Assembly: GCF_001735745.1 (NCBI RefSeq)
Contig: NZ_CP017260.1
Location: forward strand, 2,070,001-2,102,000
Length of the DNA: 32,000 nt
Origin: Formosa sp. Hel1_33_131
GTDB taxonomy: Bacteria; Bacteroidota; Bacteroidia; Flavobacteriales; Flavobacteriaceae
Direction: 5' to 3'
Shown piece by piece: positions 5,609 to 22,704 of this stretch. The notes beneath the pieces were generated by a model. It was not told the origin of the DNA and searched no databases. It was given only the letters and a program-made list of their open reading frames with translations. Numbering within the stretch: position 1 is the stretch's first letter; each line of letters opens with the position of its first letter. The position numbers and the translations under genes are program-made.

Positions 5609-5613
5609 TAAAA

Positions 5614-5717: not shown

Positions 5718-5721
5718 AAAA

Positions 5722-6030
5722 AGTATTAAGATGAAAGTGGAAAGTGGAAAGTGGAAAGTGGAAAGTTAAAAGTTAAAAGTGAAAAGTGAAAAGTGAAAAG
5801 TGAAGAGTTAAGAGTTATGAGTTAAAAGTTAAGAGTTAAAAGTGAAAAGTGAAAAGTGAAGAGTTAAGAGTTATGAGTTAAAAGTGAAGAGTTAAAAGTG
5901 AAGAGTTAAAAGTTAAGAGTTATGAGTTATGAGTTAAGAGTTACAAGACGTAAGACTAAAAAGTAATGAGTACTAAGTATTAAGTATTAAGAAAAAAGAG
6001 CATAGAGCATAGAAAATAGAAAAGAACACG
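5722..6030 (+). repeat. largest heptanucleotide array (purine-rich on + strand), about 44 units
   Basis: agtggaa x4, agttaaa x2, agtgaaa x3, agtgaag, agttaag, agttatg and so on. The register is kept for about 220 bp, then slips by 2 nt and continues as agtaatg agtacta agtatta x2 agagcat x2. Confidence 0.9.
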
Positions 6031-6049
6031 AATTTAAAACGATATTAAA

Positions 6050-7402: not shown

Positions 7403-7493
7403 AGTGATGAGTGATGAGTGATGAGTGATGAGTGATGAGTGATGAGTGATGAGTGATGAGTGATGAGTTGTGAGTGAAAAGAAAATAGAACCT
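7403..7493 (+). repeat. heptad tract: 9 perfect agtgatg units plus 4 degenerate units, starting at the nucleotide after the stop codon
   Basis: The perfect units span 7403-7465. They are followed by agttgtg agtgaaa agaaaat agaacct. Confidence 0.95.
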
Positions 7494-7572
7494 GTCATTG
7501 CGAGATTTCCTGCCGAAGGTAGGTTTACCTACCGGTAGGTAGGCGCAGTGCGGCAATCTGTTTATTAGGAGT
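7494..7572. repeat. solo left arm of the palindromic element, carrying an inserted 16-bp perfect palindrome
   Basis: The arm reads gtcattgcgag ... gcagtgcggcaatctgtttattaggag. The insert contains tacctaccggtaggta at 7526-7541. Confidence 0.75.
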
Positions 7573-7606
7573 TATTTTAAACCGAGTAAAAACAATAATT
7601 AAAATA

Positions 7607-9181
7607 ATGAAAAACAAGAACTTATTTTTAACACTTTGCCTTATGGCAATGACGGTCTTTGGTTTTGCACAAGTGAAAAAAATAGACAACCTACAAGTAA
7701 ATACAACGCTGATTCTACCACTTGTGACAAAAGTACAAATAGAGGCCTTAACTCCTACAGAAGGGTCAATGGTATATTGTACAGATTGTTCCCCGAAGTC
7801 GATTTATATATTTAATGGTTTTTCTTTTATGAGTCTTTCTGGTTCATATCAATTGTCATCCGTTTTTGTATTTACTGCTTTTCCAATAAATAATAAGATT
7901 TATAAAAGAGACAAGGCTCTTAATTCATCTGTAGTGCCAATATCTGGGAGAATTGCTTCGTCGTCTAGTATTAGCAGTATTTCATTAGAAGTGTTCAGGA
8001 ACAATTCATTGCTTTCTACAACAACAGAAGTTCTTAGCAATACAGATAATTTTGGTAATTATACATTTAGCTTTAGCCCAACGATTAATGCAGAACTGGC
8101 AAGTTATAAATTTGTTGTAAAATCGAATACAGGTCAAATCCTAAAGCAAGCAGATAACATCGCTTCAGGAGACATCTATATAGTAACTGGGCAATCTAAT
8201 ATCGTAACTCATAGTTCTAGTGTTGGAACCTTTCCATTTACCAACCCCTACATAAGAACTTTTGCTAGTCCTAACAATTTTACAAGTACCATTACAGTAA
8301 TACGCCCTGCTGCACTTGGTGGCATCGGGTATTGGTTTGCAGAACAGATTGTTACGAATGAGAACATCCCTGTGTTGGTCTTAAATGGCGGTGAAGGAGG
8401 AAGACCTATATCGTTCTTCCAAAGAAACGATAGTGATCCCGATAATACTGCTACCAATTATGGTCAATTATTAACTCGGTATAAGTACGCGGGTTATGAC
8501 CCCACAGATGTCACTTCTATTGTTTGGTATCAAGGTGAAAGTGATGGTTATCAAAGTTTAAGTTACTATACCAATTTATTTGATGCCTTGTACCAAGATT
8601 GGGAAGAAGATTACAACCCGGATAGCTATTATGTTTTTCAGGTGCATAAAGGATGTGGTGTTTCAATTACATCACAGATACCAGAAGCACATAGAGGTTT
8701 GCAAAACACGTATAGTAACCTAACAACGATTTCTACTAATGGGGCTTTACAAGGTTCCGATAATTGTCATTATTACAACACCAATGGATATGAGGTTTTG
8801 GCAGATCGTTTGTATGATATTTTAGATTTTAAATATTACGACGCTACATCAAGCGCTGGAATCTATTCTCCCAATGTGAGCAATGTGAAATTCGGTGATG
8901 CGAGTAAAACAACGATTACATTTCAGCTGGTACCTGCATCTGATACATATACCATGGGAAGTGGTATGGAAGATGACTTTTTAATAGAAAATAGTAGTTC
9001 AACCGTAACAAGCATAAGTCTTAGTGGTAATTTAGTGACGTTAACCCTCTCAACAGCAGCAACAGAAAGTAACGCTAAACTGACTTATTTAGGAGAGTCT
9101 CAGGCAACAGTGCCATATATTTTTAACCAAAACAACAATGGAATGTTAAGTTTTAAAGATGTTTTAATAGGTAATTTTTAG
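7607..9181 (+). CDS. secreted SASA/DUF303-type carbohydrate (sialate O-acetyl) esterase-like protein with a borrowed N-terminal module
   Basis: GDIYIVTGQSN and VWYQGESD motifs fit the SGNH-like SASA family. The first about 65 aa are about 80% identical to the N-terminus of the FISUMP protein. Confidence 0.7.
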   Translation: MKNKNLFLTLCLMAMTVFGFAQVKKIDNLQVNTTLILPLVTKVQIEALTPTEGSMVYCTDCSPKSIYIFNGFSFMSLSGSYQLSSVFVFTAFPINNKIYKRDKALNSSVVPISGRIASSSSISSISLEVFRNNSLLSTTTEVLSNTDNFGNYTFSFSPTINAELASYKFVVKSNTGQILKQADNIASGDIYIVTGQSNIVTHSSSVGTFPFTNPYIRTFASPNNFTSTITVIRPAALGGIGYWFAEQIVTNENIPVLVLNGGEGGRPISFFQRNDSDPDNTATNYGQLLTRYKYAGYDPTDVTSIVWYQGESDGYQSLSYYTNLFDALYQDWEEDYNPDSYYVFQVHKGCGVSITSQIPEAHRGLQNTYSNLTTISTNGALQGSDNCHYYNTNGYEVLADRLYDILDFKYYDATSSAGIYSPNVSNVKFGDASKTTITFQLVPASDTYTMGSGMEDDFLIENSSSTVTSISLSGNLVTLTLSTAATESNAKLTYLGESQATVPYIFNQNNNGMLSFKDVLIGNF

Positions 9182-9274
9182 AAATAAAGTATATTGTATA
9201 TTGATAAATTTTGCAATTGCAATTTCATGAAAAAACTCGAAATGAACGGATAAAAAAAATAAGTATACCAAACG

Positions 9275-9298
9275 GACCCCCTTCTGGGGGGGTGTTTT
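9275..9298 (+). terminator. possible terminator of the esterase gene
   Basis: ccccc ttct ggggg followed by ggtgtttt. The T-run is weak. Confidence 0.4.
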
Positions 9299-9446
9299 AT
9301 ACCCCAGCCCTTAGCGGTCTATTTTACAGCAACCTATAACCTCAAAATGTTATGTTTTTAAAAACCTTTACCAAACATTATGACCTACACCTATTACCCG
9401 CAGCCCATTCCAAAATACTGTTGGGAAATTTAATATGGAAGCCTTT

Positions 9447-9790
9447 TTGGGGCAAGCCAACGCTGCAATCCTACCTTCGGTAGGTAAGCTCATTAAAAGG
9501 ACTCGTAAGTGTTCAACAGATTACTTCGTCCTGCGTCCTCGTAATGACGGGAGTGTATTGTCATTGCGAACGAAGTGCGGCAATCTGTTTATAAGGAGTT
9601 GTATGTGTTCAACAGATTACTTCGTCCTGCATCCTCGTAATGACGGGAGTGTATTGTCATTGCGAACGAAGTGCGGCAATCTGTTTATTAGGAGTTCGAT
9701 GTTCAACAGATTACTTCGTCGTACCTCCTCGTAATGACGGGTGTGTATTGTCATTGCGAACGAAGTGCGGCAATCTATTTATAAAATCAA
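9447..9790. repeat. array of palindromic repeat units upstream of the GIY-YIG gene (about 3.5 units, period 84-96 bp)
   Basis: Left arms gtgtattgtcattgcgaacgaagtgcggcaatctg alternate with right arms cagattacttcgtc(c/g)t(g/a)c(g/c)tcctcgtaatgacggg. tcattgcgaa occurs at 9561, 9657 and 9741. Confidence 0.9.
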
Positions 9791-9795
9791 TAAAA

Positions 9796-10095
9796 ATGCA
9801 AAAATCACATGTATATTTTTTAACAAACAAGAATCATACGGTCATTTATATTGGTGTTACAAGCTATTTATTAAAACGAATCTACCAACACAAAACGAAA
9901 GTATATAAGGGCTTTACTTCCAGATACAATTGTGATCAACTGGTCTATGTTGAGGCTTTTGATAGTATTGTAGAAGCAATCGGTAGAGAGAAACAACTAA
10001 AAGCAGGAAACCGAAAACGTAAAGAAGCATTGATAAATTTAGAGAATCCAGATTGGTTGGATTTAAGTGAGGGTTGGGTGTTCTGTTTTGATTAA
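9796..10095 (+). CDS. small GIY-YIG nuclease-family protein (UPF0213-like)
   Basis: MQKSHVYFLTNKNHTVIYIGVTSYLLKRIYQHK...REKQLK..NRKRK..LI. The ORF-track frame extends upstream into repeat DNA, so the ATG at 9796 is taken as the start. Confidence 0.85.
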   Translation: MQKSHVYFLTNKNHTVIYIGVTSYLLKRIYQHKTKVYKGFTSRYNCDQLVYVEAFDSIVEAIGREKQLKAGNRKRKEALINLENPDWLDLSEGWVFCFD

Positions 10096-10098
10096 CGC

Positions 10099-10688
10099 GT
10101 GTATTGTCATTGCGTCTTTTGTGTATTGTCATTGCGAGCGCAGCGCGGCAATCTGTTCAAAAGGAGTTCGATGTTCAACAGATTACTTCGTCGTACCTCC
10201 TCGTAATGACGGGAGTGTATTGTCATTGCGAACGAAGTGCGGCAATCTGTTTATAAGGAGTTGTATGTGTTCAACAGATTACTTCGTCGTACCTCCTCGT
10301 AATGACGGGTGTGTATTGTCATTGCGAACGAAGTGCGGCAATCTGTTTATAAGGAGTTGTATGTGTTCAACAGATTACTTCGTCCTGCGTCCTCGTAATG
10401 ACGGGAGTGTATTGTCATTGCGAACGAAGTACGGCAATCTGTTCAAAAGTAGTTGTATGTGTTCAACAGATTACTTCGTCCTTCGTCCTCGTAATGACGG
10501 CAGTGTGTTACTTCGTCCTTCGTCCTCGTAATGACGGGAGTGTATTGTCATTGCGAACGAAGTGCGGCAATCTGTTCAAAAGTAGTTGTATGTGTTCAAC
10601 AGATTACTTCGTCGTACCTCCTCGTAATGACGGGAGTGTGTTACTTCGTCCTTCGTCCTCGTAATGACGGCAGTGTGTTACTTCGTCT
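10099..10688. repeat. array of palindromic repeat units downstream of the GIY-YIG gene (about 6 full and several partial units)
   Basis: Same arms as 9447-9790. Left arms are at about 10099, 10121, 10215, 10309, 10406 and 10540. Extra partial right arms (gttacttcgtccttcgtcctcgtaatgacgg) lie near 10505, 10639 and 10677. Confidence 0.9.
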
Positions 10689-10706
10689 TGGTTTTATCTC
10701 AAATTC

Positions 10707-10796
10707 CCGTTCCTTACACGAAACAGTACCTAGGTTACGTCAATGTGCCGTTTGTTACATGACGCTTTTAGGGGTCTGGTTTTATAGCTTTCTTTG
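10707..10796 (+). promoter_or_regulatory. triple direct-repeat upstream site (copy A5) plus -7-like box
   Basis: ccgttccttac at 10707, a degenerate acctaggttac at 10728, ccgtttgttac at 10748. tttctttg ends 38 nt after TTAC, the same box as in copy A4. Confidence 0.5.
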
Positions 10797-10959
10797 TTTA
10801 AGAAAATTAACATAAAAATTAACAAAATATAAATAAATTATTTCTTTTAACTCCATGGTTATAGAAAAGTTATATTAAGAAATAGACCAAAAGAGTGCTA
10901 GAATTAGAAATTATTTTGATGTAGTATAATAGTTAAATTTTAAACAGTATTAAGTTTTG

Positions 10960-11178
10960 ATGTTTAGAGACGGAGAAAGCCATGCATTTGAGGTGTTTGT
11001 TAAAATTCCTTCCATGTATGGTGACACTCTGAATTTTCAGATGGAACATTTAACCCAACCAACTCTAAAACGCGCTGTTACGGGATTTACACAAATAGAT
11101 GAATTTATGAATGATAAAAATAATGAAGCAGGAACTATGGGGCAAGTCCTCTGTACCGCGGGAGCGGGAATAGACTGA
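10960..11178 (+). CDS. doubtful small ORF (72 aa) downstream of copy A5
   Basis: It is the only open frame in 10,800-11,250 and has no recognisable family. It ends ...NNEAGTMGQVLCTAGAGID. It could equally be non-coding. Confidence 0.25.
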   Translation: MFRDGESHAFEVFVKIPSMYGDTLNFQMEHLTQPTLKRAVTGFTQIDEFMNDKNNEAGTMGQVLCTAGAGID

Positions 11179-11251
11179 CTAGACCCTGTTTCGAAAGCCG
11201 ATTCAAAATATTTGATTATAATGGAGAATCGGCACTGCCTGCTTTTGAAAA

Positions 11252-11285
11252 AAGTGAACGCCACGCTAAAGCGTGGTAAATGGAG
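11252..11285 (-). repeat. inverted copy of the boundary hairpin (ttccatttaccacgctttagcgtggcgttcactt)
   Basis: The reverse complement matches 2671-2704 and the metG terminator core. On the minus strand a T-run follows it, so it would terminate leftward transcription coming out of the heptad array. Confidence 0.7.
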
Positions 11286-11575
11286 AAGTGAAAAATGGGA
11301 ATTAGTAAATGGAAAATGGAAAGTGAAAAGTTAATAATGGGAAGTGATGAAGATAAAAGTGAAAAATGGGAAGTAGTAAGCACAAAGTTAAAAGTTAAAA
11401 GTGAAAAATGGGAAGTAGTAAGCACAAAGTTAAAAGTTAAAAGTTAAAAGTGAAAAATGGGAAGTAGTAAGCACAAAGTTAAAAGTTAAAAGTTAAAAGT
11501 GAAAAATGGGAAGTAGTAAGTGGAAAGTTAAAAGTGGAATATGACTTAAGACGAAAAGGGACGTAGGACGTAAGA
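11286..11575 (+). repeat. heptanucleotide array with 42/49/49-bp higher-order repeats
   Basis: gtgaaaaatggg recurs at 11359, 11401, 11450 and 11499. The spacings are 6, 7 and 7 heptads, and the units differ by one agttaaa. Confidence 0.9.
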
Positions 11576-11702
11576 TGAATGCGTATTAAGGCTTACATGT
11601 CTGACCTTTTAAATAATAATAAAGTAATGAACCAGGGTTCAAGATTTTTCACTTTCCGCTTTCCACTTATCAGTTTTTTTCTATAGTTTTAAATTTTGTT
11701 GC

Positions 11703-11710
11703 TACTTTTG
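11703..11710 (+). promoter_or_regulatory. -7 box (TAnnTTTG) for the lacI-family gene
   Basis: tacttttg lies 39 nt upstream of the ATG. Confidence 0.5.
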
Positions 11711-11748
11711 GTTATACTACCTTAGCCTTCATTATTTAAAATGCTTTT

Positions 11749-12747
11749 ATGGCGGGATCAAACATTACCTTAAAACAATTGTCATCTATCTTAGGGGTGT
11801 CTATTTCAACCATTTCCAAAGCGTTGAATGACAGCCATGAGATCAGTGATGTGACCAAAAAACGCATTGTGGAGATGGCAAAGTTGCACAACTATCAGCC
11901 AAATAAAATTGCAGTGGGTCTTAAATCTGGAAAAACCAATACCATTGCGGTGGTGATTCCGAGTGTTCAAAATAGTTTTTTTGCACGGGCTTTGTATGGC
12001 ATTGAAAGTCTGATTTCGGAAACTAATTTTAATATTATTGTGTGTCTCACCAAAGAATCCCATGCCAAGGAAGTGGAAACATTTAATATGTTGTCCAATG
12101 GTGTTGTGGATGGTTTTATAGTGGCGGTTTGTGAAGAAACACAGAGTTTACAAAATTACGATCATTTTACGAATGTGATGGAAAATGGCAAATCGGTTGT
12201 GATGTTTGACCGCGTGATTGATTCTGTAAACTGCGGAAAAGTGACCACCAATGATTTTACAGCTTTGTCCGAAGCCACTCAAAAACTGATTAGTTCGGAT
12301 CGAAAAAACATTGTGTTACTCTCTACAATTCATAAGTTGAACGTTGGAAAACAACGGACACAAGGCTATTTGAAAGCGATGAAAGCGGCTGGTTTTACGC
12401 CTACTGTTTTGGAGTCGGACGAACAGCAGGCAGGTGCCGTGATGGTGGAGTATTTAAATGCCCACCCTGTTGATGCCATTATTGCATTGGACACCGATGC
12501 GTCTTTGGCGGCCTTAAAAGCGGTGAAAATTTCTGGAAAGCAAATTCCAAAGGATGTGGCGGTGATTGGTTATGTTAGCGAGCGTATGGCACACAACCTT
12601 ACGCCAGAATTAACGACGATCAATCAACACAGTTATACGATTGGGAATGCAGCAGCACGCATGATTGTGGAGTCCATCAGAACCAAATCTAAGGAGATTC
12701 AGCAAGTGGTGATCAGTTCTACTTTGTCGGTACGCGATTCGTCTTAA
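11749..12747 (+). CDS. LacI-family transcriptional regulator
   Basis: N-terminal HTH ITLKQLSSILGVSISTISKALND...ISDVTKKRIVEMAKLHNYQPN plus a periplasmic-binding-protein-like sugar-binding core. Confidence 0.9.
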   Translation: MAGSNITLKQLSSILGVSISTISKALNDSHEISDVTKKRIVEMAKLHNYQPNKIAVGLKSGKTNTIAVVIPSVQNSFFARALYGIESLISETNFNIIVCLTKESHAKEVETFNMLSNGVVDGFIVAVCEETQSLQNYDHFTNVMENGKSVVMFDRVIDSVNCGKVTTNDFTALSEATQKLISSDRKNIVLLSTIHKLNVGKQRTQGYLKAMKAAGFTPTVLESDEQQAGAVMVEYLNAHPVDAIIALDTDASLAALKAVKISGKQIPKDVAVIGYVSERMAHNLTPELTTINQHSYTIGNAAARMIVESIRTKSKEIQQVVISSTLSVRDSS

Positions 12748-12760
12748 AAAACAGGATATT

Positions 12761-12937
12761 TCATTTTTCAGTTTCTAATGCCATTTCTTCGGGAGTAACT
12801 TCAATTACTTTTCCATTCTGGGAAATTACTATGGGCGTTTTTTTAAACTTCTTAAATTCAATCATTTTTGTATGCGCAATCTTCAACCCTTTAGTAACTT
12901 TAGCCTCTAAATCAGATAATTCTTTTTTAATTGTCAT
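12761..12937 (-). CDS. small hypothetical protein (58 aa)
   Basis: The start is taken at MTIKKELSDLEAKV. The longer GTG-initiated frame in the ORF track runs through promoter-like DNA. Its 5' end is duplicated at 14242-14295. Confidence 0.45.
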   Translation of the reverse strand: MTIKKELSDLEAKVTKGLKIAHTKMIEFKKFKKTPIVISQNGKVIEVTPEEMALETEK

Positions 12938-12971
12938 GATATGTTGTTTTGTTACTCTGATTGTGTTCTTA
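12882..12971. repeat. 90-bp direct repeat, copy 1 (5' end and upstream region of the small gene)
   Basis: Matches 14240-14329 at an offset of 1358 bp with only a few mismatches. Confidence 0.9.
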
Positions 12972-13129
12972 GTTGTTGTAAATATAAAAAATCTATATTT
13001 CGTTAGCAAATGCACTTTAGAGACGAAGTAGAAATTGATAAATTCATTCTAAAAAAACTTTTTGTTTTCGAGTATTCTATGATTACAAAAATTGTTATTT
13101 ATACGAGGGCTTTACTTCTCACAAAATCC

Positions 13130-13137
13130 TATATTTG
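13130..13137 (+). promoter_or_regulatory. -7 box (tatatttg) for rhuM
   Basis: The same tatatttgatac word as the parDE promoter, 64 nt upstream of the ATG. Confidence 0.5.
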
Positions 13138-13200
13138 ATACAATAAAACATAGACTATCTTTATCTTATGGAAAGATAATAACTTAAGAATAATAAACTT

Positions 13201-14183
13201 ATGCAATCAGAAATTATCATTTATCAAACTGAAGATGGGCAAACTAAAATACAAACACGTTTAGATAATGAAACGGTATGGCTCACCATAGAACAATTGA
13301 GTGAATTATTTCAAAAATCACGTTCTACCATTAATGAACATATTTTAAACATTTTTAAGGAAGGAGAACTTGAAAAAGAAGCTTCAATGAGAAAAATCGG
13401 AATTTCCGATTTTTCTACCAAACCAACCAATATATACAACCTTGATGTGATTATTTCAGTAGGCTATCGTGTAAAATCTCACAGGGGAGTACAGTTTCGT
13501 AAATGGGCAACCGCACGACTTAAAGAATATATCATCAAAGGTTTTACAATGAATGATGACCTATTAAAAGAAGCAGGAGGAGGTAATTATTTTGATGAGT
13601 TGCTAGAACGAATCAGAGATATTCGCTCATCTGAAAAAGTATTTTGGCGTAAGGTATTAGATATCTATGCAACCAGTATTGACTACGATTCACAAGTAGA
13701 AGAGTCAAAAACTTTTTTTAAGACCATTCAAAATAAAATGCACTGGGCAGTCCATGGCAATACTGCATCCGAAATTATTTATAAACGAGTAAATGCCAAT
13801 GCCAAGCAACTAGGATTAACCAATTACAAAGGAGAAAAACCAATTAAAAGTAAACGGAAATTGCAAAAAATTATCTTAATAATGAAGAACTCGATGTCTT
13901 AAATCGAATTGTTACTGCATATCTTGAAATCGCAGAGTTACAAGCTTTGAATCGCAAGCCTATGTATATGCACGATTGGATTGTACGTCTTGATGATTTT
14001 TTAAAAATGACAGGAAATAAGGTGCTTGATAATGCAGGGAGTGTTAGTCATAAAAAAGCCATTGATAAAGCACATGGCGAGTATGAAAAATTTAAACAAA
14101 AGGCTAAAGAAGCTTTAAGTAAGGTAGAGGAACATTTTATCAAACAAATAGATGCTACAACAAAACAGTTAAAGAAAAAATAA
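13201..14183 (+). pseudogene. rhuM: RhuM-family virulence-associated protein gene, disrupted by a 1-nt frameshift
   Basis: ORFs 13201-13902 and 13947-14183 are the N- and C-terminal parts of one RhuM-like protein. The IAKNYLNNEELDVLNRIVTAYLEIAELQALNRKPMYM frame opens right after 13854-13857 (aaacgg), which is consistent with the loss of one base. Confidence 0.8.
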
Positions 14184-14239
14184 ACTTTCTTTTGTATAAG
14201 GATCGTTTAATGAAGTGCTTTAAAGAGAATACTAAATAT

Positions 14240-14329
14240 TTTCACCCTATAGTAACTTTAGCCTCTAAATCAGATAATTCTTTTTTAATTGTCATGATAT
14301 GTTGTTTTGTTACTCTGACTGTGTTCTTA
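14240..14329. repeat. 90-bp direct repeat, copy 2 (contains a truncated 17-codon copy of the small gene at 14242-14295, minus strand)
   Basis: The minus strand reads MTIKKELSDLEAKVTIG-stop. Confidence 0.9.
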
Positions 14330-14343
14330 TGTGTTATAAAATT

Positions 14344-14375
14344 AAAAAGAGAGTCCCAGTGGAACTCTCTTTTTC
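14344..14375. terminator. bidirectional hairpin terminator downstream of ssb
   Basis: aaaaagagagtcc cagt ggaactctcttttt has an A-run and a T-run on either side. Confidence 0.6.
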
Positions 14376-14394
14376 TTATCAGAAGTAAACTTTC

Positions 14395-14733
14395 TTACTG
14401 TTTGTTTCCCAACATTAGAACTTCATTCACCACCACTTCTGTGATGTAACGTTTTTCGCCTTCTTTGGTTTCATAGCTTCTGGAAGTTAATTTGCCTTCA
14501 ACCGCAATTTCTTTGCCTTTGGTGACGTAGTTTTCAATGATTTCAGCAGTTTTGTTCCATGCAACGAGATTATGCCAATCTGTTTTGGTTTGTTTTTGTC
14601 CATCGGCATCTTTGTAATACTCGTTTGTTGCTAATGAAAATTTTGCTAATTTTTTTCCACTGTCTAAAGTGATAATTTCTGGGTCATTTCCCAAGTTTCC
14701 AATTAACTGTACTTTGTTTCTGAGTGTGTTCAT
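14395..14733 (-). CDS. ssb: single-stranded DNA-binding protein (short form, no acidic C-terminal tip)
   Basis: RNKVQLIGNLGNDPE...KFSLATNE...TDWHNLVAWNKTAEI..NYVTKGKEIAVEGKL..RSY is an OB-fold SSB. It ends in ...LMLGNKQ rather than D-D-D-I-P-F. Confidence 0.9.
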   Translation of the reverse strand: MNTLRNKVQLIGNLGNDPEIITLDSGKKLAKFSLATNEYYKDADGQKQTKTDWHNLVAWNKTAEIIENYVTKGKEIAVEGKLTSRSYETKEGEKRYITEVVVNEVLMLGNKQ

Positions 14734-14835
14734 GATAAAATAATTTTAAGGTTATAACAGTTTTACTATCGAACGATTCGACACTGCAAAGATGTGATGC
14801 TATCCAAATGTTAGTCGGTAATTACCTATTTAATT

Positions 14836-14867
14836 TCGTTTGTAATTACTTGTAGTCGTTTGTAATT
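14836..14867 (+). promoter_or_regulatory. two direct repeats tcgtttgtaatt with 20-bp phasing (variant of the CCGTTTGTTAC site)
   Basis: The repeats are at 14836-14847 and 14856-14867, upstream of the 91-bp repeat block. Confidence 0.4.
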
Positions 14868-14914
14868 GAATAAATTTTTAGTATATTTCGGGTCTGTAAC
14901 CAGAAATCAATTGA

Positions 14915-15187
14915 CATGAACCATCCATCACTAAAACTTGATACTCAATAAAAATGCTTAAAATGGATGCACCATGTGACCTTTGAAAAACAATAAATAG
15001 ATATACATGAACCATCCATTACTAAAATTTGATATTCAATAAAAATGCTTAAAATGGATGCACCATGTGACCTTTGAAAAACAATAAATAGATATACATG
15101 AACCATCCATCACTAAAACTTGATACTCAATAAAAATGCTTAAAATGGATGCACCATGTGACCTTTAAAAAACAATAAATAGATATA
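14915..15187 (+). repeat. 3 x 91-bp perfect-register tandem repeat abutting the start codon of the zinc-ribbon gene
   Basis: Units start at 14915, 15006 and 15097. Each begins catgaa, like the real start at 15188. The middle unit differs from both outer units by three C-to-T changes. Confidence 0.95.
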
Positions 15188-15188
15188 C

Positions 15189-15536
15189 ATGAAAAAGCAA
15201 TGCCCAGAGTGTAACGATCCAATTATTGGACGAACGGACAAGAAATTTTGTAGTGATGGCTGTCGCAATAGCTATAACAACCGTGTGAATAAAGACCAGA
15301 AAAACCTGATCCGAAATATCAACAACCGATTGCGAAAAAATTGGCGTATTCTGGAAGCTCTGAATCCGCATCAAAAAACAAAATCGACACGGGATAAACT
15401 TATTTCAGCAGGGTTTGACTTTAATTATTTCACCAGTATTTATACAACAAAGTCAGGGACGGTTTACTATTTTGTGTACGACCAAGGTTATTTGCCCTTA
15501 GAAAACCATTATTATGCGTTGGTGAAACGAGAATAG
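15189..15536 (+). CDS. zinc-ribbon protein of unknown function
   Basis: CPECN...17 aa...FCSDGCRNSYNN is a four-Cys motif at the N-terminus. The basic middle region suggests nucleic-acid binding. Confidence 0.7.
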   Translation: MKKQCPECNDPIIGRTDKKFCSDGCRNSYNNRVNKDQKNLIRNINNRLRKNWRILEALNPHQKTKSTRDKLISAGFDFNYFTSIYTTKSGTVYYFVYDQGYLPLENHYYALVKRE

Positions 15537-15560
15537 TGTAGTTCAAAACGATTCATTATT

Positions 15561-15650
15561 CCGTTTACCCCCCCAAAACCCCCGTTTGTTACGTCATTTG
15601 ACCGTTGGTTACATGAGCGTTGCGAGGAGTTTAAAGGCTGTATATATTTG
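15561..15650 (+). promoter_or_regulatory. triple direct-repeat upstream site (copy B1) plus consensus -7 box
   Basis: ccgtttac at 15561, ccgtttgttac at 15582, ccgttggttac at 15602. tatatttg ends 38 nt after TTAC. Confidence 0.6.
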
Positions 15651-15656
15651 ACGTAT

Positions 15657-15728
15657 GTAATTTAATATCTTACTTAAAAGTTAAATTGGTTAATTTTGAA
15701 AAAACATCACATTCGTGATGTTTTTTTT
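15657..15728 (+). ncRNA. candidate small RNA B1 (about 72 nt)
   Basis: Variable 5' part, invariant aaaagttaaattggttaatttt, then a terminator aacatcac attc gtgatgtt + T8. Confidence 0.55.
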
Positions 15729-15748
15729 GTTTTAAAACGAACACACGT

Positions 15749-15839
15749 TCCGTTTATACATTAAATACGTCCGTTTATTACATGAATTGTCCGTTCGTTA
15801 CATAGTGATTGTAAGAACTGTAAAGGGTATGTATATTTG
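15749..15839 (+). promoter_or_regulatory. triple direct-repeat upstream site (copy B2) plus consensus -7 box
   Basis: ccgtttatac at 15749, ccgtttattac at 15771, ccgttcgttac at 15791. tatatttg ends 38 nt after TTAC. Confidence 0.6.
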
Positions 15840-15845
15840 AAGTGT

Positions 15846-15918
15846 ATAATATCTTTATATTATTAAAAGTTAAATTGGTTAATTTTGAAAAACACCACAT
15901 TCGTGGTGTTTTTTTTTT
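15846..15918 (+). ncRNA. candidate small RNA B2
   Basis: Same invariant core. The terminator acaccac attc gtggtgt shows a compensatory T-A to C-G change relative to B1. Confidence 0.55.
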
Positions 15919-15938
15919 CTTAAAAGCGAACACGCATT

Positions 15939-16028
15939 CCGTTTATACATTAAATACGCCCGTTTATTACGTTAAACGTCCGTTCGGTACATGACGGTTG
16001 TAAGAACTGTAAAGGTTATATATATTTG
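15939..16028 (+). promoter_or_regulatory. triple direct-repeat upstream site (copy B3) plus consensus -7 box
   Basis: ccgtttatac at 15939, ccgtttattac at 15960, ccgttcggtac at 15980. tatatttg ends 38 nt after the repeat. Confidence 0.6.
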
Positions 16029-16034
16029 GTGAAC

Positions 16035-16108
16035 GTAATATCTACTTATTACTAAAAAGTTAAATTGGTTAATTTTGGAAAAACACCACCCTCGTGGTGT
16101 TTTTTTTT
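16035..16108 (+). ncRNA. candidate small RNA B3
   Basis: Same invariant core. Terminator acaccac cctc gtggtgt + T9. Confidence 0.55.
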
Positions 16109-16178
16109 GCTTAAAAGCGAATGAAAAATCAACTTACTTTCAAAAAATCGATTACTTTTGAATCAAAATTTTATAAAA

Positions 16179-16880
16179 ATGAAACAATTAAAATACACAA
16201 TCTTACTAGCCCTTTGTTTTTCAATGCAAATTCAGGCACAAAACCAGACGACCTTAGTAGCTCATTACAAGGCCTTTTATGCTCAGATGCAACAACAAGG
16301 CGATATCCAAGGTGTGATTAATGCGATGACTCACCTCGTTTTATTAGAACCCAACGTAAAACGTAAAGATACGTTAGCAGCGCTTTATATGAACGAAGGG
16401 AAGTATGTACAAGCTTTAAATCTAATTGGAGTTGAACTGTTAGAATCAGACACCAATTTAGCAACTGAAGTGAAAGCCGTTAGTTTGAAATCTCTCAACG
16501 AGCCCAAACGTGCCATTGAACACTATGAAGTTCTTTACAAGCAAAAACGAACTGTTTCTCTTGCTTATGAATTAGCGGATTTGAAAATCCAAACGGATGA
16601 TCTTACAGGGGCATCTTTAAACATAACCTACGGAATAGCCAATGCTACAACCGATATGATGAAGCCTTACTATGAAACACAAACGCCGTATCAAGTACCA
16701 GTTTTGGCAGGGTTTATGTATTTAAAAGCGATCGCTAAATTTAGAGAGAATCCAGAAACAAATCACGATGCTTCTATTTTAATCTTAAATGAAGCCTTAC
16801 AATTAGCGCCTAATTTTAATATGGCAAACTTAGCTATTGATGCGATACGCGCACAAAAAGAAGCTCCAAAAACAGAGTAA
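16179..16880 (+). CDS. secreted helical-repeat (TPR-like) hypothetical protein
   Basis: The ATG at 16179 gives MKQLKYTILLALCFSMQIQAQ, a signal peptide. The ORF-track start at 16158 is a TTG. Confidence 0.65.
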   Translation: MKQLKYTILLALCFSMQIQAQNQTTLVAHYKAFYAQMQQQGDIQGVINAMTHLVLLEPNVKRKDTLAALYMNEGKYVQALNLIGVELLESDTNLATEVKAVSLKSLNEPKRAIEHYEVLYKQKRTVSLAYELADLKIQTDDLTGASLNITYGIANATTDMMKPYYETQTPYQVPVLAGFMYLKAIAKFRENPETNHDASILILNEALQLAPNFNMANLAIDAIRAQKEAPKTE

Positions 16881-19243: not shown

Positions 19244-22200
19244 CTAATTTAAGATGAGCTTTCGAGTGGTTTGTTGGTTGTTTGCTTCAATTTGTAAAAA
19301 ATAGATCCCACTGGAGTAGGCTTCCATTTGCAATGGAAATGGCGCTCCAGAATTAATTTGTTTTTTAGTGTACACGACTTTTCCAGTGATGTCCGTGACA
19401 CGAAGATCAAAAGGAGTGCTGTTATTTAATTTAACATAAAACACATCTTTGGATGGATTTGGATATACTGAAATTTGGTCGATTTGAAAATTATCAGCAT
19501 CCAATGTAGTGCCATACACAAACAAGTCATCGATAACAACGCCTTCATTATTCACCATTTGGTCTGAATGAAATACCATTCTAAAAATCATATTAGATTC
19601 TGAGCTAAAAGCTGCTAGGTCGTAAGAGTATGGTGTGAGAGTGCTATCGGTTCCAGTCCATTGTTCGCCAACACAGTTAGCACAATTAGCTAAACTGCTA
19701 TTGTACCAGTTAAAATCTTCTGCGGTTCCTAGTACATTCCAATCAACTCCTTGGTTTGTTGAATACTGAACATAGGCGACGTCGTAGTCTGATTCTAAAT
19801 CGAACGCCATTTGAAAATTCAATTCTGGATTCGCAATGGTAGTCAAGTCGTAACAATTAGACACAAGGTAGCCTTTTGAGTTGTCTGCATAATTGCCACT
19901 CAAGTTAGTGGCATAGACATTTGTTCCGGATGCCGTTTCATTAAGTAGAGTTCCGGTAGGAGTTCCACGTTGCCAAACATCTCCAGACTCATTAATAACA
20001 ATAAGTTCGTCACTGGTATTTTCAAACATATTTACTGTTCCAGTTTCGCTAGTTTCATTCACATAAAACGTAATTTCAGCACTGTTGTTGTTGGTGAAAG
20101 AATCATTGTTAATGGTAGTTGTCGCAGATAGCGTATGGATTCCTGCGGCTAAAGTCATGTCACCTAAGTCCAAAATAGCGGTCGCTTGGGAGGCGATGGC
20201 TCCAAACCATGAGAGTGGTATCTCATTTCCACCGTCAAGAGTATAGGTAATGTCAACAGTGTTTATGCTATTTTGTCCATTATTTAGTACCCTTAATTGT
20301 GGAGCGACTGCTCCGCAATTGAGTTGCATACTTATTGGGTTCTCAATAGCAATTAAAAAAATATCGTTAGCTGCTAAAGCTTCGGTCTGCAAATCACTTC
20401 GCCAAATGCCACGTCCGTGAGTTGCCGCAGTAATATTATAGTCTGGGATGTTGATACTTAAATCTCTGACATCAGTATTTGGAAGGTTTGTTTCAAAAAG
20501 ACCCCAATCGTTTGTAGTGTCGTCGTATCTGTAAACGCCTAAGCTTGTCCCAAGGTATAGCGCATTAGTTGGGGAGAAAGGCTGGTGTTTGATAATGTTT
20601 TTTGTAACATTAGGAAGCGTTCCTGTGATGTCTGTAAAATTACTCCCTTGATCCGTAGATCTATAAACCTTTCCATCACCTCCGCTTGTGGTGATGTAAA
20701 GGATGGTATTGTCATTGTTATTAACTTCAATGGACGTGATATTACTTGTAAAATCTTGAATCAGTGAAAATGTAACACCATGATTTACACTTTTATGAAG
20801 TTCATGATGTACGCTACTATTCACATCGTCATAATAAGAAAAACTTACATACATAATATCTGAGTTGATAGGGTCGAGTTCTAAAACCTCAATATTAGCT
20901 TCAAAAGTATCTGAGATTTTGGTCCAACCGGCTGAACCAAAGTTGTAAACGCTGCCATAGCCGGCATACAATTCACTGTCTTTGTTTATTGAAAGTGGAG
21001 TAATCCAGTTTCCTACTTCATTAGTGGGAGCTCCATAACCATTCGTACTTCCATTTTGACCTGAATTAGTGTTTATGTTTAGACTACCACCGCGCTGCGT
21101 AAAACCATAATAGATGTTATCGTTGTTAGGATCAACCACTCCTTCCATCCCATCTCCTCCATGGTAATTACTCCATTGTTGATCCCGTCCAAAACCTCCA
21201 TTGTCCTGAAGTCCTCCTGCCATTTTATTTGAATCTTGTTTGGATACAGAAATTCTATAAAACTGACTAATTCCCAATCCTGGAGACAAATCCGTAAATG
21301 TGCTACCTGCATCTGTCGATTCAAAAATACCTCCATCGGAGCCTACAAATATGCTACCATTAAAAGCGCGGATGAAATGAATGTCAGCGTGGGTGTATGA
21401 TTCGGTTCGGCTGTACCACTGATTAAGTTGTGAAAATGAATCCCCTCCATCACTCGATTTCCAGACATTTAAACAGCCCACATAAATTTCATTTTCATTG
21501 GTGTTAGAAACAGCAATGGCTAAATCATACCAGGATTGATCTCCTTCAAAGATATTAACAGTGTTCTCCATTTGTGTAAAAGTTGTACCACTGTCAGATG
21601 ATTTGTAAATTCCTTGGTAGGTGCTATCTGAATTTGATGCCACCATATAAACAAGGTTGCCATTCGCTGGCGTGATATCAATAAAAAGACGTCCTGAAGT
21701 CGTTGGCAGTCCCTCTGTAATTTGTGTAAACGTTTCCCCTGCATCTGTGGATTTGTAAAATTCATCATTCGTAGTTGCATAAATGATATTTGAATTATTA
21801 GGTTTTACTTTGAGGTCTCTAAAACTACCAGATTGTTTGTTTGTCCAGTCATCACCACCATTTACAGATTTAAAAATCCCATTACTGGTTGCAACCCAAA
21901 GCATGTTGGTATTGTCTGGGTTTATATAGATTTCAGAGGTTCTGTATGGCGTGTTCGTAGGATTCATTCCTGTTTGCTGCCAATTGGCACCTGCATCTGT
22001 TGATTTCCAAATTCCTACACTTGTAGAACTGTTATAGTCATCATCGCCAGTGGCGATGTAAAGAATGTCTGTATTGCTTGGATCGATAGCGATTCCAGAA
22101 ACCCCAATTTGAGGTAAGAAGTCCGTCAAAGGAATGTACGTAGCCCCCGCATCTGTGGATTTCCAAATCCCACCTGCAGGCGATCCAACATAAATAACAT

Positions 22201-22639
22201 CTGAATTGTCTGGATCCACAATGATGGTATTGACACGACCAAGGTTTGCACTGTTAGTCGATCGATTTAAAAAATCAGTGGGCCCCATAGATTCCCAATC
22301 ACTTTCATCGGTTCTTACAGCCGTTGAACGTCGTTGTGATTTCTGAGAATTTTTAGCTTCCCATACGTCCCACAATTCTTGAGAGGTTGGTAAAAACCCA
22401 CCGGCATTCACATAATTTTGCCAAAAGGACTCCCAACGTTTGAAGGGTTTGTATCCACTTCCTTTAACGTCTGTGTCACGGGTTTCCCAATAGGTGTTTC
22501 CGGCATCGACAATTTCTTTGAATGTTAAAGGATTGGCTTTGGTGTTTTTCAGGCCTTTCATCCAAGGCGTTCCAGAATCGACTTGCGCATTGGAAAAAAG
22601 ACAGTAAAAGGTACAGAGTACAATAAGAAGAGTTCTCAT
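19244..22639 (-). CDS. large BNR/Asp-box (sortilin-like) repeat surface protein with a T9SS C-terminal sorting domain
   Basis: At least 8 S-x-D-x-G-x-T-F/W/Y Asp-boxes (KSTDAGATY, KSTDAGANW, KSTDAGETF and others). The C-terminus ISVYPNPSKDVFYV...GIYFLQIE...KLILN is a type A Por/T9SS tail. Confidence 0.85.
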   Translation of the reverse strand: MRTLLIVLCTFYCLFSNAQVDSGTPWMKGLKNTKANPLTFKEIVDAGNTYWETRDTDVKGSGYKPFKRWESFWQNYVNAGGFLPTSQELWDVWEAKNSQKSQRRSTAVRTDESDWESMGPTDFLNRSTNSANLGRVNTIIVDPDNSDVIYVGSPAGGIWKSTDAGATYIPLTDFLPQIGVSGIAIDPSNTDILYIATGDDDYNSSTSVGIWKSTDAGANWQQTGMNPTNTPYRTSEIYINPDNTNMLWVATSNGIFKSVNGGDDWTNKQSGSFRDLKVKPNNSNIIYATTNDEFYKSTDAGETFTQITEGLPTTSGRLFIDITPANGNLVYMVASNSDSTYQGIYKSSDSGTTFTQMENTVNIFEGDQSWYDLAIAVSNTNENEIYVGCLNVWKSSDGGDSFSQLNQWYSRTESYTHADIHFIRAFNGSIFVGSDGGIFESTDAGSTFTDLSPGLGISQFYRISVSKQDSNKMAGGLQDNGGFGRDQQWSNYHGGDGMEGVVDPNNDNIYYGFTQRGGSLNINTNSGQNGSTNGYGAPTNEVGNWITPLSINKDSELYAGYGSVYNFGSAGWTKISDTFEANIEVLELDPINSDIMYVSFSYYDDVNSSVHHELHKSVNHGVTFSLIQDFTSNITSIEVNNNDNTILYITTSGGDGKVYRSTDQGSNFTDITGTLPNVTKNIIKHQPFSPTNALYLGTSLGVYRYDDTTNDWGLFETNLPNTDVRDLSINIPDYNITAATHGRGIWRSDLQTEALAANDIFLIAIENPISMQLNCGAVAPQLRVLNNGQNSINTVDITYTLDGGNEIPLSWFGAIASQATAILDLGDMTLAAGIHTLSATTTINNDSFTNNNSAEITFYVNETSETGTVNMFENTSDELIVINESGDVWQRGTPTGTLLNETASGTNVYATNLSGNYADNSKGYLVSNCYDLTTIANPELNFQMAFDLESDYDVAYVQYSTNQGVDWNVLGTAEDFNWYNSSLANCANCVGEQWTGTDSTLTPYSYDLAAFSSESNMIFRMVFHSDQMVNNEGVVIDDLFVYGTTLDADNFQIDQISVYPNPSKDVFYVKLNNSTPFDLRVTDITGKVVYTKKQINSGAPFPLQMEAYSSGIYFLQIEANNQQTTRKLILN

Positions 22640-22704
22640 AATAGTTAAATTGGTTGGTTAATATAGTTTGTCTTCTTTTTAAGAATACGGTTTAGTGTAA
22701 AAAA

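Follow-up and report, generated by a model that had tools for sequence, protein, structure and literature searches.

The 32,000-nt stretch of DNA analyzed here (the window) carries three head-to-tail units of ∼189 bp each on the + strand (15541-16120), which are probably sibling genes of one family of trans-acting small RNAs (sRNAs), activated by a LytTR-type regulator and pairing with the start regions of mRNAs. Judging from their homologues in other genomes, the units are a conserved family, which we call FAM1, rather than a mere local duplication, and FAM1 is a group of previously uncatalogued, predicted sRNA genes, new siblings of a known kind of RNA.

An initial annotation of the window had proposed three tandem 189-bp units at this place, and the repeat structure agreed with it: Tandem Repeats Finder reported a period of 189 with 2.4 copies and 86% matches over 15665-16121, and the mean column identity was 84% in an alignment of the units, designated B1, B2 and B3. 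Each unit contains the three CCGTT motifs that had been described (starting at 15560/15581/15601, 15749/15770/15790 and 15938/15959/15979, with a spacing of 21 and then 20 bp) and a perfect TAnnTTTG box (TATATTTG at 15643-50, 15832-39 and 16021-28). The invariant 22-mer AAAAGTTAAATTGGTTAATTTT occurs exactly three times in the window, at 15676, 15865 and 16055, always on the + strand, compared to a chance expectation of 0.01. A GC hairpin with a T8-9 run closes every unit; a terminator scan called two of the three hairpins, and all three fold as 12- to 13-bp stems. The absence of an ORF from the units was likewise borne out, since the mechanical ORFs of 21-51 aa start with TTG or GTG, cross the terminators and have frames broken by 1-nt indels, both between units and between homologues. 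The transcript starts were revised to near 15655, 15844 and 16033, ∼2 nt upstream of those first proposed, because we took TAnnTTTG as lying at -12 to -5 (PMC9723704). The predicted features of the array are the following.

15560..15609 (+): unit B1, putative activator sites; 9-bp direct repeats TCCGTTTAC (15560-68), CCCGTTTGT (15581-89) and ACCGTTGGT (15601-09), with spacers of 12 and 11 bp; position weight matrix (PWM) score of 62 bits; LytTR repeat pattern (PMC6193735)
15620..15650 (+): unit B1, core promoter; -33 TTG (15620-22), 20 nt, -7 box TATATTTG (15643-50)
15655..15728 (+): sRNA B1, ∼74 nt, "type A"; 5' segment GUAAUUUAAUAUCUUAC (conserved), core 15676-15697, terminator 15698-15728 (stem ACAUCAC/GUGAUGU, U8); covariance-model match of 94.1 bits, E 6.5e-15
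15749..15839 (+): unit B2, promoter module; repeats 15749-57, 15770-78 and 15790-98, -33 TTG 15809-11, -7 box 15832-39; PWM score of 54 bits
15844..15918 (+): sRNA B2, ∼75 nt; 5' hairpin AUAAUAU-CUUU-AUAUUAU, core 15865-15886, terminator 15887-15918 (ACACCAC/GUGGUGU, U9-10); covariance-model match of 85.6 bits
15938..16028 (+): unit B3, promoter module; repeats 15938-46, 15959-67 and 15979-87, -33 TTG 15998-16000, -7 box 16021-28; PWM score of 57 bits
16033..16108 (+): sRNA B3, ∼76 nt; 5' hairpin GUAAUA-UCUACU-UAUUAC, core 16055-16076, terminator 16077-16108; covariance-model match of 90.0 bits

The array sits between two co-oriented genes, for a Zn-ribbon protein and a TPR protein (16179-16880), leaving 70 nt between the end of its last terminator and the TPR start codon. 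Repeats are dense over window positions 400-16100 (heptamer arrays as well as tandem repeats of 91, 96 and 107 bp), a region where 11 kb are inserted compared with close relatives. Reading of the sequences revealed no stretch of the sRNAs that is complementary to the repeats. Five of the 20 window ORFs that were scanned gave no Pfam match.

Folding of the whole units yielded z-scores of -3.6 to -4.8. Among homologues we found 40 distinct 5' segments, 29 of which form a hairpin of differing sequence, and covariation was also seen in the terminator stem, with pairs showing 11, 6 and 3 double changes. Within the array, the compensatory double change in the terminator stem that had been noticed at first is real (ACATCAC/GTGATGT in B1 versus ACACCAC/GTGGTGT in B2 and B3), but taken alone it is weak evidence for selection on structure, for which the 5' hairpins and the conservation of the family argue more strongly. 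The core between these two elements is A/U-rich and near-invariant across the family (AAUUGGUUAAUU; also written UUAAAAGUUAAAUUGGUUAAUUUU). Its description as single stranded held only partly in our predictions, which place the 22-mer of B2 and B3 in a weak 8-bp A-U/G-U hairpin (SL2) with the loop AUUGG exposed. As a structural element SL2 was rejected: it shows no covariation within a core that hardly varies, and variants keep only the self-complementary UUAA/UUAA. We treat this hairpin as weak or optional.

Altogether, we counted ∼65 FAM1 copies at ∼60 loci in genomes and metagenomes of Flavobacteriaceae, standing singly or in arrays of up to four. The covariance-model search of relatives that the initial annotation had recommended gave 65 matches of ≥48 bits over a noise of ≤34 bits, including arrays of up to four copies. 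The sequence AATTGGTTAATT is kept in nearly all of these ∼65 strong matches, a sample partly keyed on the core itself; one of them, L183:9874-9962 (54.8 bits), reads AATTGGTTAGTA. Scanning one genome per species with a 20-mer produced 54 loci, ∼26 of them (42 units) with true units that have both module and terminator; nearly all of these are labelled Flavobacteriaceae/Bacteroidota, and a few are apparently mis-binned. Two or three tandem copies are present at L012, L018, L035, L037, L039, L042, L049, L050, L053 and L063. A metagenome scan keyed on the promoter, with the RNA unused, returned 150 module instances, and in 55 of them the FAM1 core AATTGGTTAATT came next, while the bases around it in the 17-mer varied little. 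Both the core and the terminator pairing are conserved in relatives, where no conserved protein frame covers the region, and this comparison supports the earlier view of each unit as a complete small-RNA gene, present in multiple copies and carrying a conserved seed.

The location of FAM1 is syntenic in most genomes, and its copy number ranges from zero to four. The first copy was of type A in every multi-copy array examined, and array units are closer to their positional counterparts in other genomes than to one another. No Rfam 15 family matched the units, and the only match in the window at gathering score was a tRNA; sub-threshold matches to RNAI (26 bits, threshold 47) and GcvB (21.5 bits, threshold 42) were discarded as noise, and those to tsr26 and rimP were far below their thresholds. 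One FAM1 locus, L048, has a single unit and comes from a genome labelled Formosa sp. Hel1_33_131, a cultured strain. FAM1 carriers are bloom-associated marine polysaccharide degraders.

Each unit appears to be under the positive control of a LytTR-type two-component regulator, as suggested by the sites upstream of its promoter. The promoter module consists of three 9-bp direct repeats (family consensus NCCG(T/C)TT(A/G)T; window examples TCCGTTTAT, CCCGTTTGT and TCCGTTCGT), separated by spacers of 12 (distal) and 11 bp (proximal). The distance from the third repeat to the -33 TTG is exactly 10 bp in B1, B2, B3 and the aligned homologues, and the repeats, -33 element and -7 box are held in strict register in 40 homologous units. 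The core promoter of every unit, TTG-N20-TATATTTG, is of the Bacteroidota sigma-A type, which has TTG near -33 and TAnnTTTG at -12 to -5 (PMC9723704). Known LytTR sites have, for instance, the arrangement ACCGCTTAT-12 bp-ACCGCTTAT, located 10 bp before the -35 element, with spacers of 11 or 13 bp in a minority (PMC6193735), and their repeats are imperfect direct repeats of the pattern [TA][AC]C[GA][CT]TT[AG]T (PMC6193735, Tables 2 and 3). The unit repeats match in sequence, in the 12- and 11-bp spacers and in the 10 bp to the -35 equivalent, the proximal 11-bp spacer belonging to the minority class.

The triple CCGTT site, which had been regarded as a part of these sRNA genes, is indeed present but not specific to them, being a regulon-wide LytTR-type site found before unrelated RNA bodies and ORFs. 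The same module also precedes two other sRNA-like families in the window and, in relatives, genes for OmpA-like outer-membrane, secreted and type IX secretion system (T9SS) proteins. In the second family, TTTAATTGCTTAATTGT (at 568 and 1250) was considered as a diverged core with 3 mismatches; it was rejected as a shared seed and read as promoter sequence, because it occupies the place of the -7 box in the module geometry.

The window is devoid of LytTR genes, and the assignment of the regulator rests on site architecture together with gene neighborhood in other genomes. At L060, a Response_reg+LytTR gene (1532-2290) lies directly upstream of a module and FAM1, and a His_kinase gene is oriented divergently. 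Orthologues of this regulator adjoin modules or FAM1 at L117, L151, L166, L114, L089, L150 and L131. Searching from the regulator gave the corresponding picture: orthologues with 83%, 67% and 64% identity were all near modules with triple or paired repeats, and L183, found in this search, contains two FAM1 copies, while no modules were seen near a paralogue with 44% identity. In relatives, searches from either the module or the regulator pointed to one orthologous Response_reg+LytTR group with its PF06580 kinase among the module-driven genes; the putative regulator is a LytTR response regulator working with a PF06580-type histidine kinase. The intergenic region between regulator and kinase contains no module, hence no sign of autoregulation. 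A Y_Y_Y plus LuxR-type regulator also recurs beside FAM1. LytTR systems are numerous in Flavobacteriaceae.

The core appears to pair with an mRNA encoded nearby, that of a BNR-repeat T9SS protein, in its start region. The candidate site is the following.

22637..22655 (-): candidate target site; the 13-nt AACCAAUUUAACU at 22643-22655 is a perfect complement of AGUUAAAUUGGUU in the core

The 13 nt span -16 to -4 relative to the AUG at 22637-22639, the start codon of a gene (19244-22639, - strand) that encodes a 1131-aa T9SS-secreted protein with BNR/sortilin repeats, 6.5 kb from the array. Within the window, the sRNA genes themselves and 22643-22655 are the only places with the 13-mer complement (chance expectation, 0.15). 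When 920 unique start regions were ranked against the core, those of orthologous BNR/T9SS genes came near the top. A perfect complement of 10-13 nt is present at the BNR/T9SS start in four FAM1-bearing lineages, whose target proteins share 51-100% identity, and the site is absent in two lineages that lack FAM1 in the 19-20 kb of the syntenic locus covered by this comparison. One compensated change between sRNA and mRNA was seen, G (sRNA)-C (mRNA) in the window versus A (sRNA)-U (mRNA) in L005/L181. The Zn-ribbon homologues P0035 and P0059 have no M13 or BNR genes at the locus and were uninformative for the target comparison.

This was the only robust candidate target that we found. Complements of 10-mers of the core were counted 27 times near start codons, compared to 19, 11 and 7 for composition-matched controls, but we do not claim a general enrichment because this count is confounded by A-rich 5' untranslated regions (UTRs). 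The core is A/U-rich, and Bacteroidota 5' UTRs are likewise. The TPR gene was rejected as a target: its start region forms a low-energy duplex with the core (-15.9 kcal/mol), but perfect complementarity extends over no more than 7 nt, and the pairing involves A and U only and is not conserved in L005. The 5' UTR of the ammonium transporter gene amt was rejected as a general target, being weak in L014, L052, L065 and L181. In one lineage its signal is strong, with perfect complementarity over 19 nt in L085 and similar sites in L100 and L113, and we retain amt as a lead for that lineage.

From the anatomy, conservation, covariation, synteny and complementarity that could be observed directly, we infer transcription of the units, binding of the regulator and repression of the target, including its sign. 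Each unit would be an independent transcription unit, whose activator would bind the three phased 9-bp repeats, the last of them 10 bp before the -33 TTG. Transcription would then yield an RNA of ∼75 nt that ends at the intrinsic terminator and is laid out as variable 5' hairpin, invariant core and terminator, with the AUUGG of the core predicted to be exposed. The core would pair with translation-initiation regions, the best candidate being -16 to -4 of the BNR-repeat T9SS mRNA, and pairing at the start region would block ribosome loading. To our knowledge, initiation in Bacteroidota is not based on Shine-Dalgarno sequences. The several copies would add dosage, and the differing 5' hairpins might add specificity.

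An sRNA with these features could instead bind a protein and pair with no mRNA, the hairpin UUAA/UUAA with its loop AUUGG serving as recognition element and the copies titrating the protein in the manner of CsrB/RsmY. We consider this unlikely, even though the core is conserved as a sequence without covariation and can form a small hairpin, and multi-copy arrays would fit titration. One candidate partner would be the conserved Zn-ribbon protein whose gene precedes the array. FAM1 directly follows the stop codon of this 115-aa gene in most genomes, and some sources name its product a "predicted nucleic acid-binding Zn ribbon protein"; but the gene is present without FAM1 at the locus in L001/L179, L007/L182, L187 and L188, and FAM1 is also found apart from it, beside TetR/Y_Y_Y genes or a LytTR regulator. 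Moreover, each RNA has one motif, in contrast to the repeated motifs typical of sponge RNAs, and titration leaves unexplained why start-region complementarity tracks the lineages that carry FAM1.

It is quite improbable that the units act purely in cis, as leaders or attenuators or terminator-promoter cassettes that serve the TPR gene or insulate it from the Zn-ribbon gene. The position of the array between two co-oriented genes, 70 nt ahead of the TPR start codon, is compatible with such a role, as is the -15.9 kcal/mol duplex of the TPR start region with the core, though its longest perfect complement is 7 nt. Yet every unit has a strong terminator and its own promoter, predicted to be activator dependent, and the downstream gene varies by genome (TPR, Y_Y_Y regulator, a 108-aa ORF, or none). 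The close relatives L001/L004 hold both flanking genes without any unit between them, and conservation resides in the core rather than at the junction with the next gene. Slightly less probable still are selfish or neutral repeats, that is, a mobile promoter-plus-terminator cassette duplicated locally with functionless transcripts, which would suit the repeat-crowded region, its 11-kb insertion and the variable copy number but not the match of units to positional counterparts with type A first, the invariance of the core next to diverging flanks and compensated stems, the synteny, or the lack of terminal inverted repeats and target-site duplications at the units.

Among described systems, the preferred reading of FAM1 as trans-acting siblings has several analogues. 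Resemblance to the Qrr/PrrF pattern, suggested at the outset, stands as far as multiple copies and a conserved core are concerned, but these RNAs are analogues only, and OmrA/B, the csRNAs and Bacteroides FopS are nearer in logic. Like FAM1, Qrr1-5 of Vibrio and PrrF1/2 of Pseudomonas exist in several copies that keep their core faithfully (32 nt in Qrr); the Qrr genes are activated by the response regulator LuxO, and PrrF1/2 are tandem in P. aeruginosa (PMC4211561). The Qrr genes are dispersed and sigma-54 dependent and PrrF is Fur repressed, whereas FAM1 is tandem with a sigma-A-type promoter, and the units gave no Rfam match to the Qrr or PrrF families. OmrA/OmrB of Enterobacteriaceae (RF00079) are adjacent tandem sibling genes of ∼80-90 nt each, with identical seed and terminator regions and a divergent middle, similar to FAM1; they depend on a response regulator (EnvZ-OmpR) and target mRNAs of outer-membrane and surface proteins, as we propose for FAM1 (PMC4211561). 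The two share no sequence or Rfam similarity, the Omr seed lies at the extreme 5' end rather than between 5' hairpin and terminator, the regulator is of the OmpR type rather than the putative LytTR type, and FAM1 arrays reach four copies. We also know of no Hfq in the host phylum, Bacteroidota.

In the CiaRH regulon of Streptococcus, each csRNA promoter is immediately preceded by a direct repeat that CiaR recognizes. The csRNAs comprise two to six siblings, some of them tandem, which count among the genes that a response regulator controls most strongly and use a conserved unpaired region to pair with start regions, as proposed for the FAM1 core (PMC4211561). They differ in having the OmpR-type CiaR instead of a presumed LytTR regulator, two repeats instead of three, unrelated sequences, and an anti-Shine-Dalgarno seed in contrast to the A/U-rich core with GG of FAM1. 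Within the same phylum, FopS/GibS of Bacteroides thetaiotaomicron are a multi-copy sRNA family of 14 members; FopS shares the succession of conserved seed and terminator and represses translation of SusC-like surface proteins by pairing near the start codon, similar to what we propose here (PMC11697453). FopS copies are dispersed and FAM1 copies tandem, FopS promoters are plain sigma-A promoters, for which no activator site is known, as opposed to the three-repeat module, and the single-stranded FopS seed is at the 5' end, unlike the internal FAM1 core. FopS belongs to Bacteroidaceae and FAM1 to Flavobacteriaceae, and FopS is deposited in Rfam but gave no match in the window.

The module itself resembles agr P3 of Staphylococcus and other LytTR-activated promoters; at P3, a LytTR regulator drives the regulatory RNAIII by binding imperfect 9-bp direct repeats with 12- to 13-bp spacers just upstream of the promoter (PMC4227749, PMC6193735). 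This promoter has two repeats versus three in FAM1, and no autoinducing-peptide genes were seen at FAM1. A single RNA of 514 nt, RNAIII also codes for a peptide.

Very little is known about post-transcriptional regulation in Flavobacteriia; we know of neither Hfq nor ProQ in this class, and of functional data on only a few of its sRNAs, such as Rfp18. Here, sequence alone yields a proposed circuit, complete and testable, that runs from a sensor kinase with its LytTR regulator through a recognizable promoter module and one to four sibling sRNAs to the start region of a T9SS target, and the module offers a genome-based reading of the regulon of an abundant, uncharacterized class of two-component systems (LytTR). 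FAM1 is found in marine Flavobacteriaceae, Formosa and its relatives among them, and the bloom-associated, polysaccharide-degrading lifestyle of these carriers would give the circuit ecological relevance. We further raise, tentatively, the possibility that a LytTR system of marine Flavobacteriaceae has as a main output at least three unrelated sRNA families, FAM1 and the two other sRNA-like ones, behind the same three-repeat module. If true, agr-RNAIII or LuxO-Qrr signaling would have a Gram-negative counterpart that works without Hfq, and the very numerous Bacteroidota LytTR systems their first defined regulon; T9SS cargo, porin composition and, in some lineages, ammonium uptake would all respond to a surface or population signal.

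The segment at 15541-16120 is made up of three units (B1 to B3) of ~189 bp each, placed head to tail. Tandem Repeats Finder assigned the array a period of 189 with 86% matches, and a three-way alignment of the units gave a mean column identity of 84%. Every unit has three CCGTT-containing repeats, a TAnnTTTG box, a body of ~74 nt and, at its 3' end, a GC-containing hairpin of 12 to 13 bp followed by eight or nine T residues; this layout, described in the initial annotation, was borne out by the repeat search, the alignment and the predicted folds. The bodies share the 22-mer AAAAGTTAAATTGGTTAATTTT, which occurs three times against 0.01 expected.

15643-50, 15832-39 and 16021-28: TAnnTTTG boxes, all perfect, each with a TTG 20 nt before it

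Unit fold energies lay 3.6 to 4.8 standard deviations below those of shuffled sequences, and the compensatory double change previously pointed out in the terminator stem (T-A in B1, C-G in B2 and B3) is real in the sequence. Also as stated earlier, there is no credible reading frame: the frames over the array are mechanical, 21 to 51 aa long with non-ATG starts, run across terminators and are interrupted by 1-nt indels. Two points needed correction. The start sites of the proposed transcripts probably lie ~2 nt further upstream, since the TAnnTTTG box occupies positions -12 to -5 (PMC9723704). The 22-mer is invariant as claimed but not predicted to be fully single stranded; a weak A-U hairpin forms in B2 and B3, leaving only AUUGG fully exposed. 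The finding is real, and its interpretation as small-RNA (sRNA) genes is supported.

In syntenic relatives the genes run in the order metG, lacI-type regulator, ssb, Zn-ribbon, TPR, M13 peptidase and BNR/T9SS. In the relative whose Zn-ribbon protein is closest (91% identity), the Zn-ribbon and TPR genes have no unit between them; a more distant one (82%) has exactly one, with the three repeats kept, the 17-nt core unchanged, and different 5' hairpin and terminator stem sequences in which pairing is kept. A 20-mer scan that sampled each species by one genome returned 54 loci, about 26 of which hold true units (42 units, in one to three tandem copies); nearly all of these are labelled Flavobacteriaceae/Bacteroidota, e.g., Formosa, and a few look mis-binned. 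Because that scan fixes the core, a metagenome scan was added whose pattern came from the promoter repeats alone. The core AATTGGTTAATT followed 55 of its 150 module instances, with only slight variation in the bases flanking the 17-mer (TTAATTTG, TTAATTGG and TTGAATTGG). A covariance-model search, as the initial annotation had suggested, used a model built from 40 units and gave 65 matches of at least 48 bits, with noise at or below 34 bits and up to four copies per array. Terminator stems covary, and the 40 distinct 5' segments form hairpins of differing sequence in 29 cases, often with UCUU within the loop. Type A, the 5' segment of B1 (GUAAUUUAAUAUCUUAC), is the first copy in all multi-copy arrays examined, with other hairpins in later copies, and the array is therefore old and ordered rather than recently duplicated. 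No Rfam 15 model matched, either at the gathering score or at E up to 10. These comparisons argue that the units are a conserved RNA family, here FAM1, and not a local curiosity; its members are very probably sRNA genes, and the family appears to be uncatalogued.

Across 40 aligned units, the register between the repeats, the -33 TTG and the -7 box is strict. The 9-mers, NCCG(T/C)TT(A/G)T, have start-to-start distances of 21 and then 20 bp, which leaves spacers of 12 and 11 bp, and exactly 10 bp separate the end of the third from the TTG downstream. LytTR-regulated promoters carry 9-bp direct repeats, such as ACCGCTTAT-12 bp-ACCGCTTAT, ~10 bp upstream of the -35 element (PMC6193735, PMC4227749), sites with 11- or 13-bp spacers being a minority (PMC6193735). 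By this geometry, we take the site upstream of FAM1 to be a regulon-wide promoter module of LytTR type. Other modules in the window precede two terminator-ended sRNA-like bodies, one secreted-protein gene and one degenerate region.

515, 1197, 2397, 2866 and 10727: further modules, each followed at the same offset by a -7-like box
495-654 and 1177-1336, + strand: second sRNA-like family, same three-repeat module
2375-2549, + strand: third sRNA-like family, same module, body of ~80 nt (roughly 2471-2549)
2845-3565, + strand: module and gene of a 202-aa secreted protein, ATG at 2957
10700-10830, + strand: module before 10770-10960, a downstream region without a convincing ORF
14813-14866, + strand: three direct repeats between ssb and the Zn-ribbon gene (GTCGGTAAT, TTCGTTTGT, GTCGTTTGT)

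Three clusters recur downstream of metagenome modules, namely, 20 secreted proteins, 17 homologues of ORF 2957-3565 (which itself has no match in Pfam or NCBIfam) and 12 OmpA-like proteins with thrombospondin-type repeats; several genes for T9SS-tail proteins also follow such modules.

The second family has bodies of ~65 nt (roughly 588-654 and 1270-1336) with the hairpin GAAUUU-GUAAGGU-AAAUUC, the terminator CUCUCCAUUAAUUUGGAGG plus U7 and TTAATTG at the -7 position; it has homologues in L042 and L082 and a tandem pair of them in L155. The third has the hairpin AAUUCG...CGAAUU and a terminator with U8, with homologues in L137 and L165. The repeats at 14813-14866, kept in L001 and L005, start 21 and then 20 bp apart as in the sRNA modules; their main departure from the module 9-mer is a single position (TCG for CCG), and their geometry to the promoter is unlike that of the sRNA modules; they may be a site for the module's regulator or a related one.

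At locus L060, a Response_reg-LytTR gene ends 45 nt before a module and FAM1; divergent from it is a gene for a PF06580 histidine kinase, and beyond lies an OmpA-like gene with its own module. Seven further loci, all fetched through the module, have an orthologue of this regulator (65 to 100% identity) next to modules or FAM1. A regulator-first search found orthologues at 83%, 67% and 64% identity in a conserved block (OmpA-like, T9SS protein, kinase, regulator, Y_Y_Y regulator, SusC/D), with two FAM1 copies nearby in one genome. The OmpA-like and T9SS-protein genes of the block have triple repeats upstream, except for a pair at the L185 T9SS gene. A 44% paralogue of the regulator has no block, modules or FAM1 nearby. 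An alternative activator would be the Y_Y_Y/LuxR-type regulator, which is also recurrent beside FAM1; promoter architecture and gene neighbourhood together suggest that it is quite probably the LytTR system that activates the module.

The FAM1 core AGUUAAAUUGGUU has a perfect complement, AACCAAUUUAACU, at 22643-22655 (- strand), which spans -16 to -4 relative to the start codon of a gene for an 1131-aa protein; this protein combines Sortilin/BNR repeats with an InhA-like MAM domain and a T9SS sorting tail. Apart from the strand antisense to the three sRNA genes, this is the only occurrence of the 13-mer in the window (0.15 expected); 60 nt upstream there is a copy with one mismatch. When 920 unique start regions, drawn from 1.36 Mb of fetched DNA, were ranked by duplex energy, the orthologous ones came out near the top. 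Four FAM1-bearing lineages carry the site (the window group, L116/L068, L181 and, with three tandem sites, L015), and their target proteins are 100 to 51% identical; the site is absent in L179/L180 and L182, where FAM1 was not found within 19 to 20 kb at that locus. L005/L181 have A for G in the sRNA just 5' of UUAAAUUGG and U for C at the opposite mRNA base, which reads as one compensatory sRNA-mRNA change. Seed complements could not be shown to be enriched near start codons in general. The BNR/T9SS mRNA is a candidate target that we moderately favor; pairing over -16 to -4 would occlude ribosome loading, presumably with a negative effect.

In the 5' untranslated regions of amt (ammonium-transporter) genes, perfect complements reach 19 nt in one sub-lineage and are weak elsewhere; amt may be a lineage-specific second target that would link the sRNA to nitrogen uptake. 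Long core complements were seen in amt paralogues of L085:-396 (19 nt), L100, L113 and L045, among them AAAATTAACCAATTTAACT at -54 in L085 and, at -37 of the second amt gene, AACCAATATAACTTTTAA.

The surrounding region is rich in other repeats.

14914-15193, + strand: 91-bp repeat, 3.1 copies, 96% matches, directly upstream of the Zn-ribbon gene
741-993, 2147-2359, 2629-2667, 5614-6023, 7403-7477 and 11274-11536: long intergenic 7-bp tandem arrays
9508-9784 and 10121-10687: 96-bp tandem repeats, 92 to 93% matches (short copy at 2080-2147)

The 91-bp array, absent in L001 and L005, runs into the Zn-ribbon start codon, and each full copy starts with ATG and encodes the mini-ORF MNHPSLKLDTQ*. The 7-bp arrays (TCTATTT, TCACTTA, AAAGTGA, AGTGATG, GAAAAGT and others) reach 32 copies, some nested inside 42- to 107-bp higher-order repeats. 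The 96-bp repeats contain an inverted repeat (GCAATCTGTT...AACAGATTAC) and lie on both sides of ORF 9796-10095, whose translation looks like a GIY-YIG (UPF0213-type) nuclease. Compared with the close relative L001/L179, ~11.4 kb (357-11748) carrying parDE, secreted proteins, a thioredoxin-like protein and a SASA esterase is inserted between metG and the lacI-type gene, and a RhuM-family gene is inserted between lacI and ssb (12750-14390); this is a variable, repeat-rich island. The 20-mer also occurs, in sense, in six Vicingaceae/Flavobacteriales genome bins (L021, L022, L029, L041, L056 and L059), where it lies in a conserved stretch of ~150 bp that precedes a gene and has neither module nor terminator; it is oddly well conserved and probably unrelated to FAM1.

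FAM1 belongs, by sequence or Rfam model, to none of OmrA/B, csRNAs, FopS/GibS, RNAIII, Qrr and PrrF; the Qrr/PrrF pattern invoked initially holds as an analogy and not as family membership. Its predicted logic is that of sibling sRNAs under two-component control acting on surface-protein mRNAs. Among the closest in this respect are OmrA/B (EnvZ-OmpR), which are tandem, share seed and terminator and have outer-membrane targets, and the CiaR-controlled csRNAs (PMC4211561). Closest within the phylum is FopS/GibS, with 14 dispersed copies and repression of SusC translation near the start codon (PMC11697453); the probable control of FAM1 by a LytTR regulator is reminiscent of agr P3/RNAIII, where such a regulator drives a regulatory RNA. 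The whole chain, from regulator through module and sRNA array to target, appears fairly probable, and the value of the finding is that the sequence allows a full circuit to be proposed, with sensor and regulator, promoter module, sRNA array and target.
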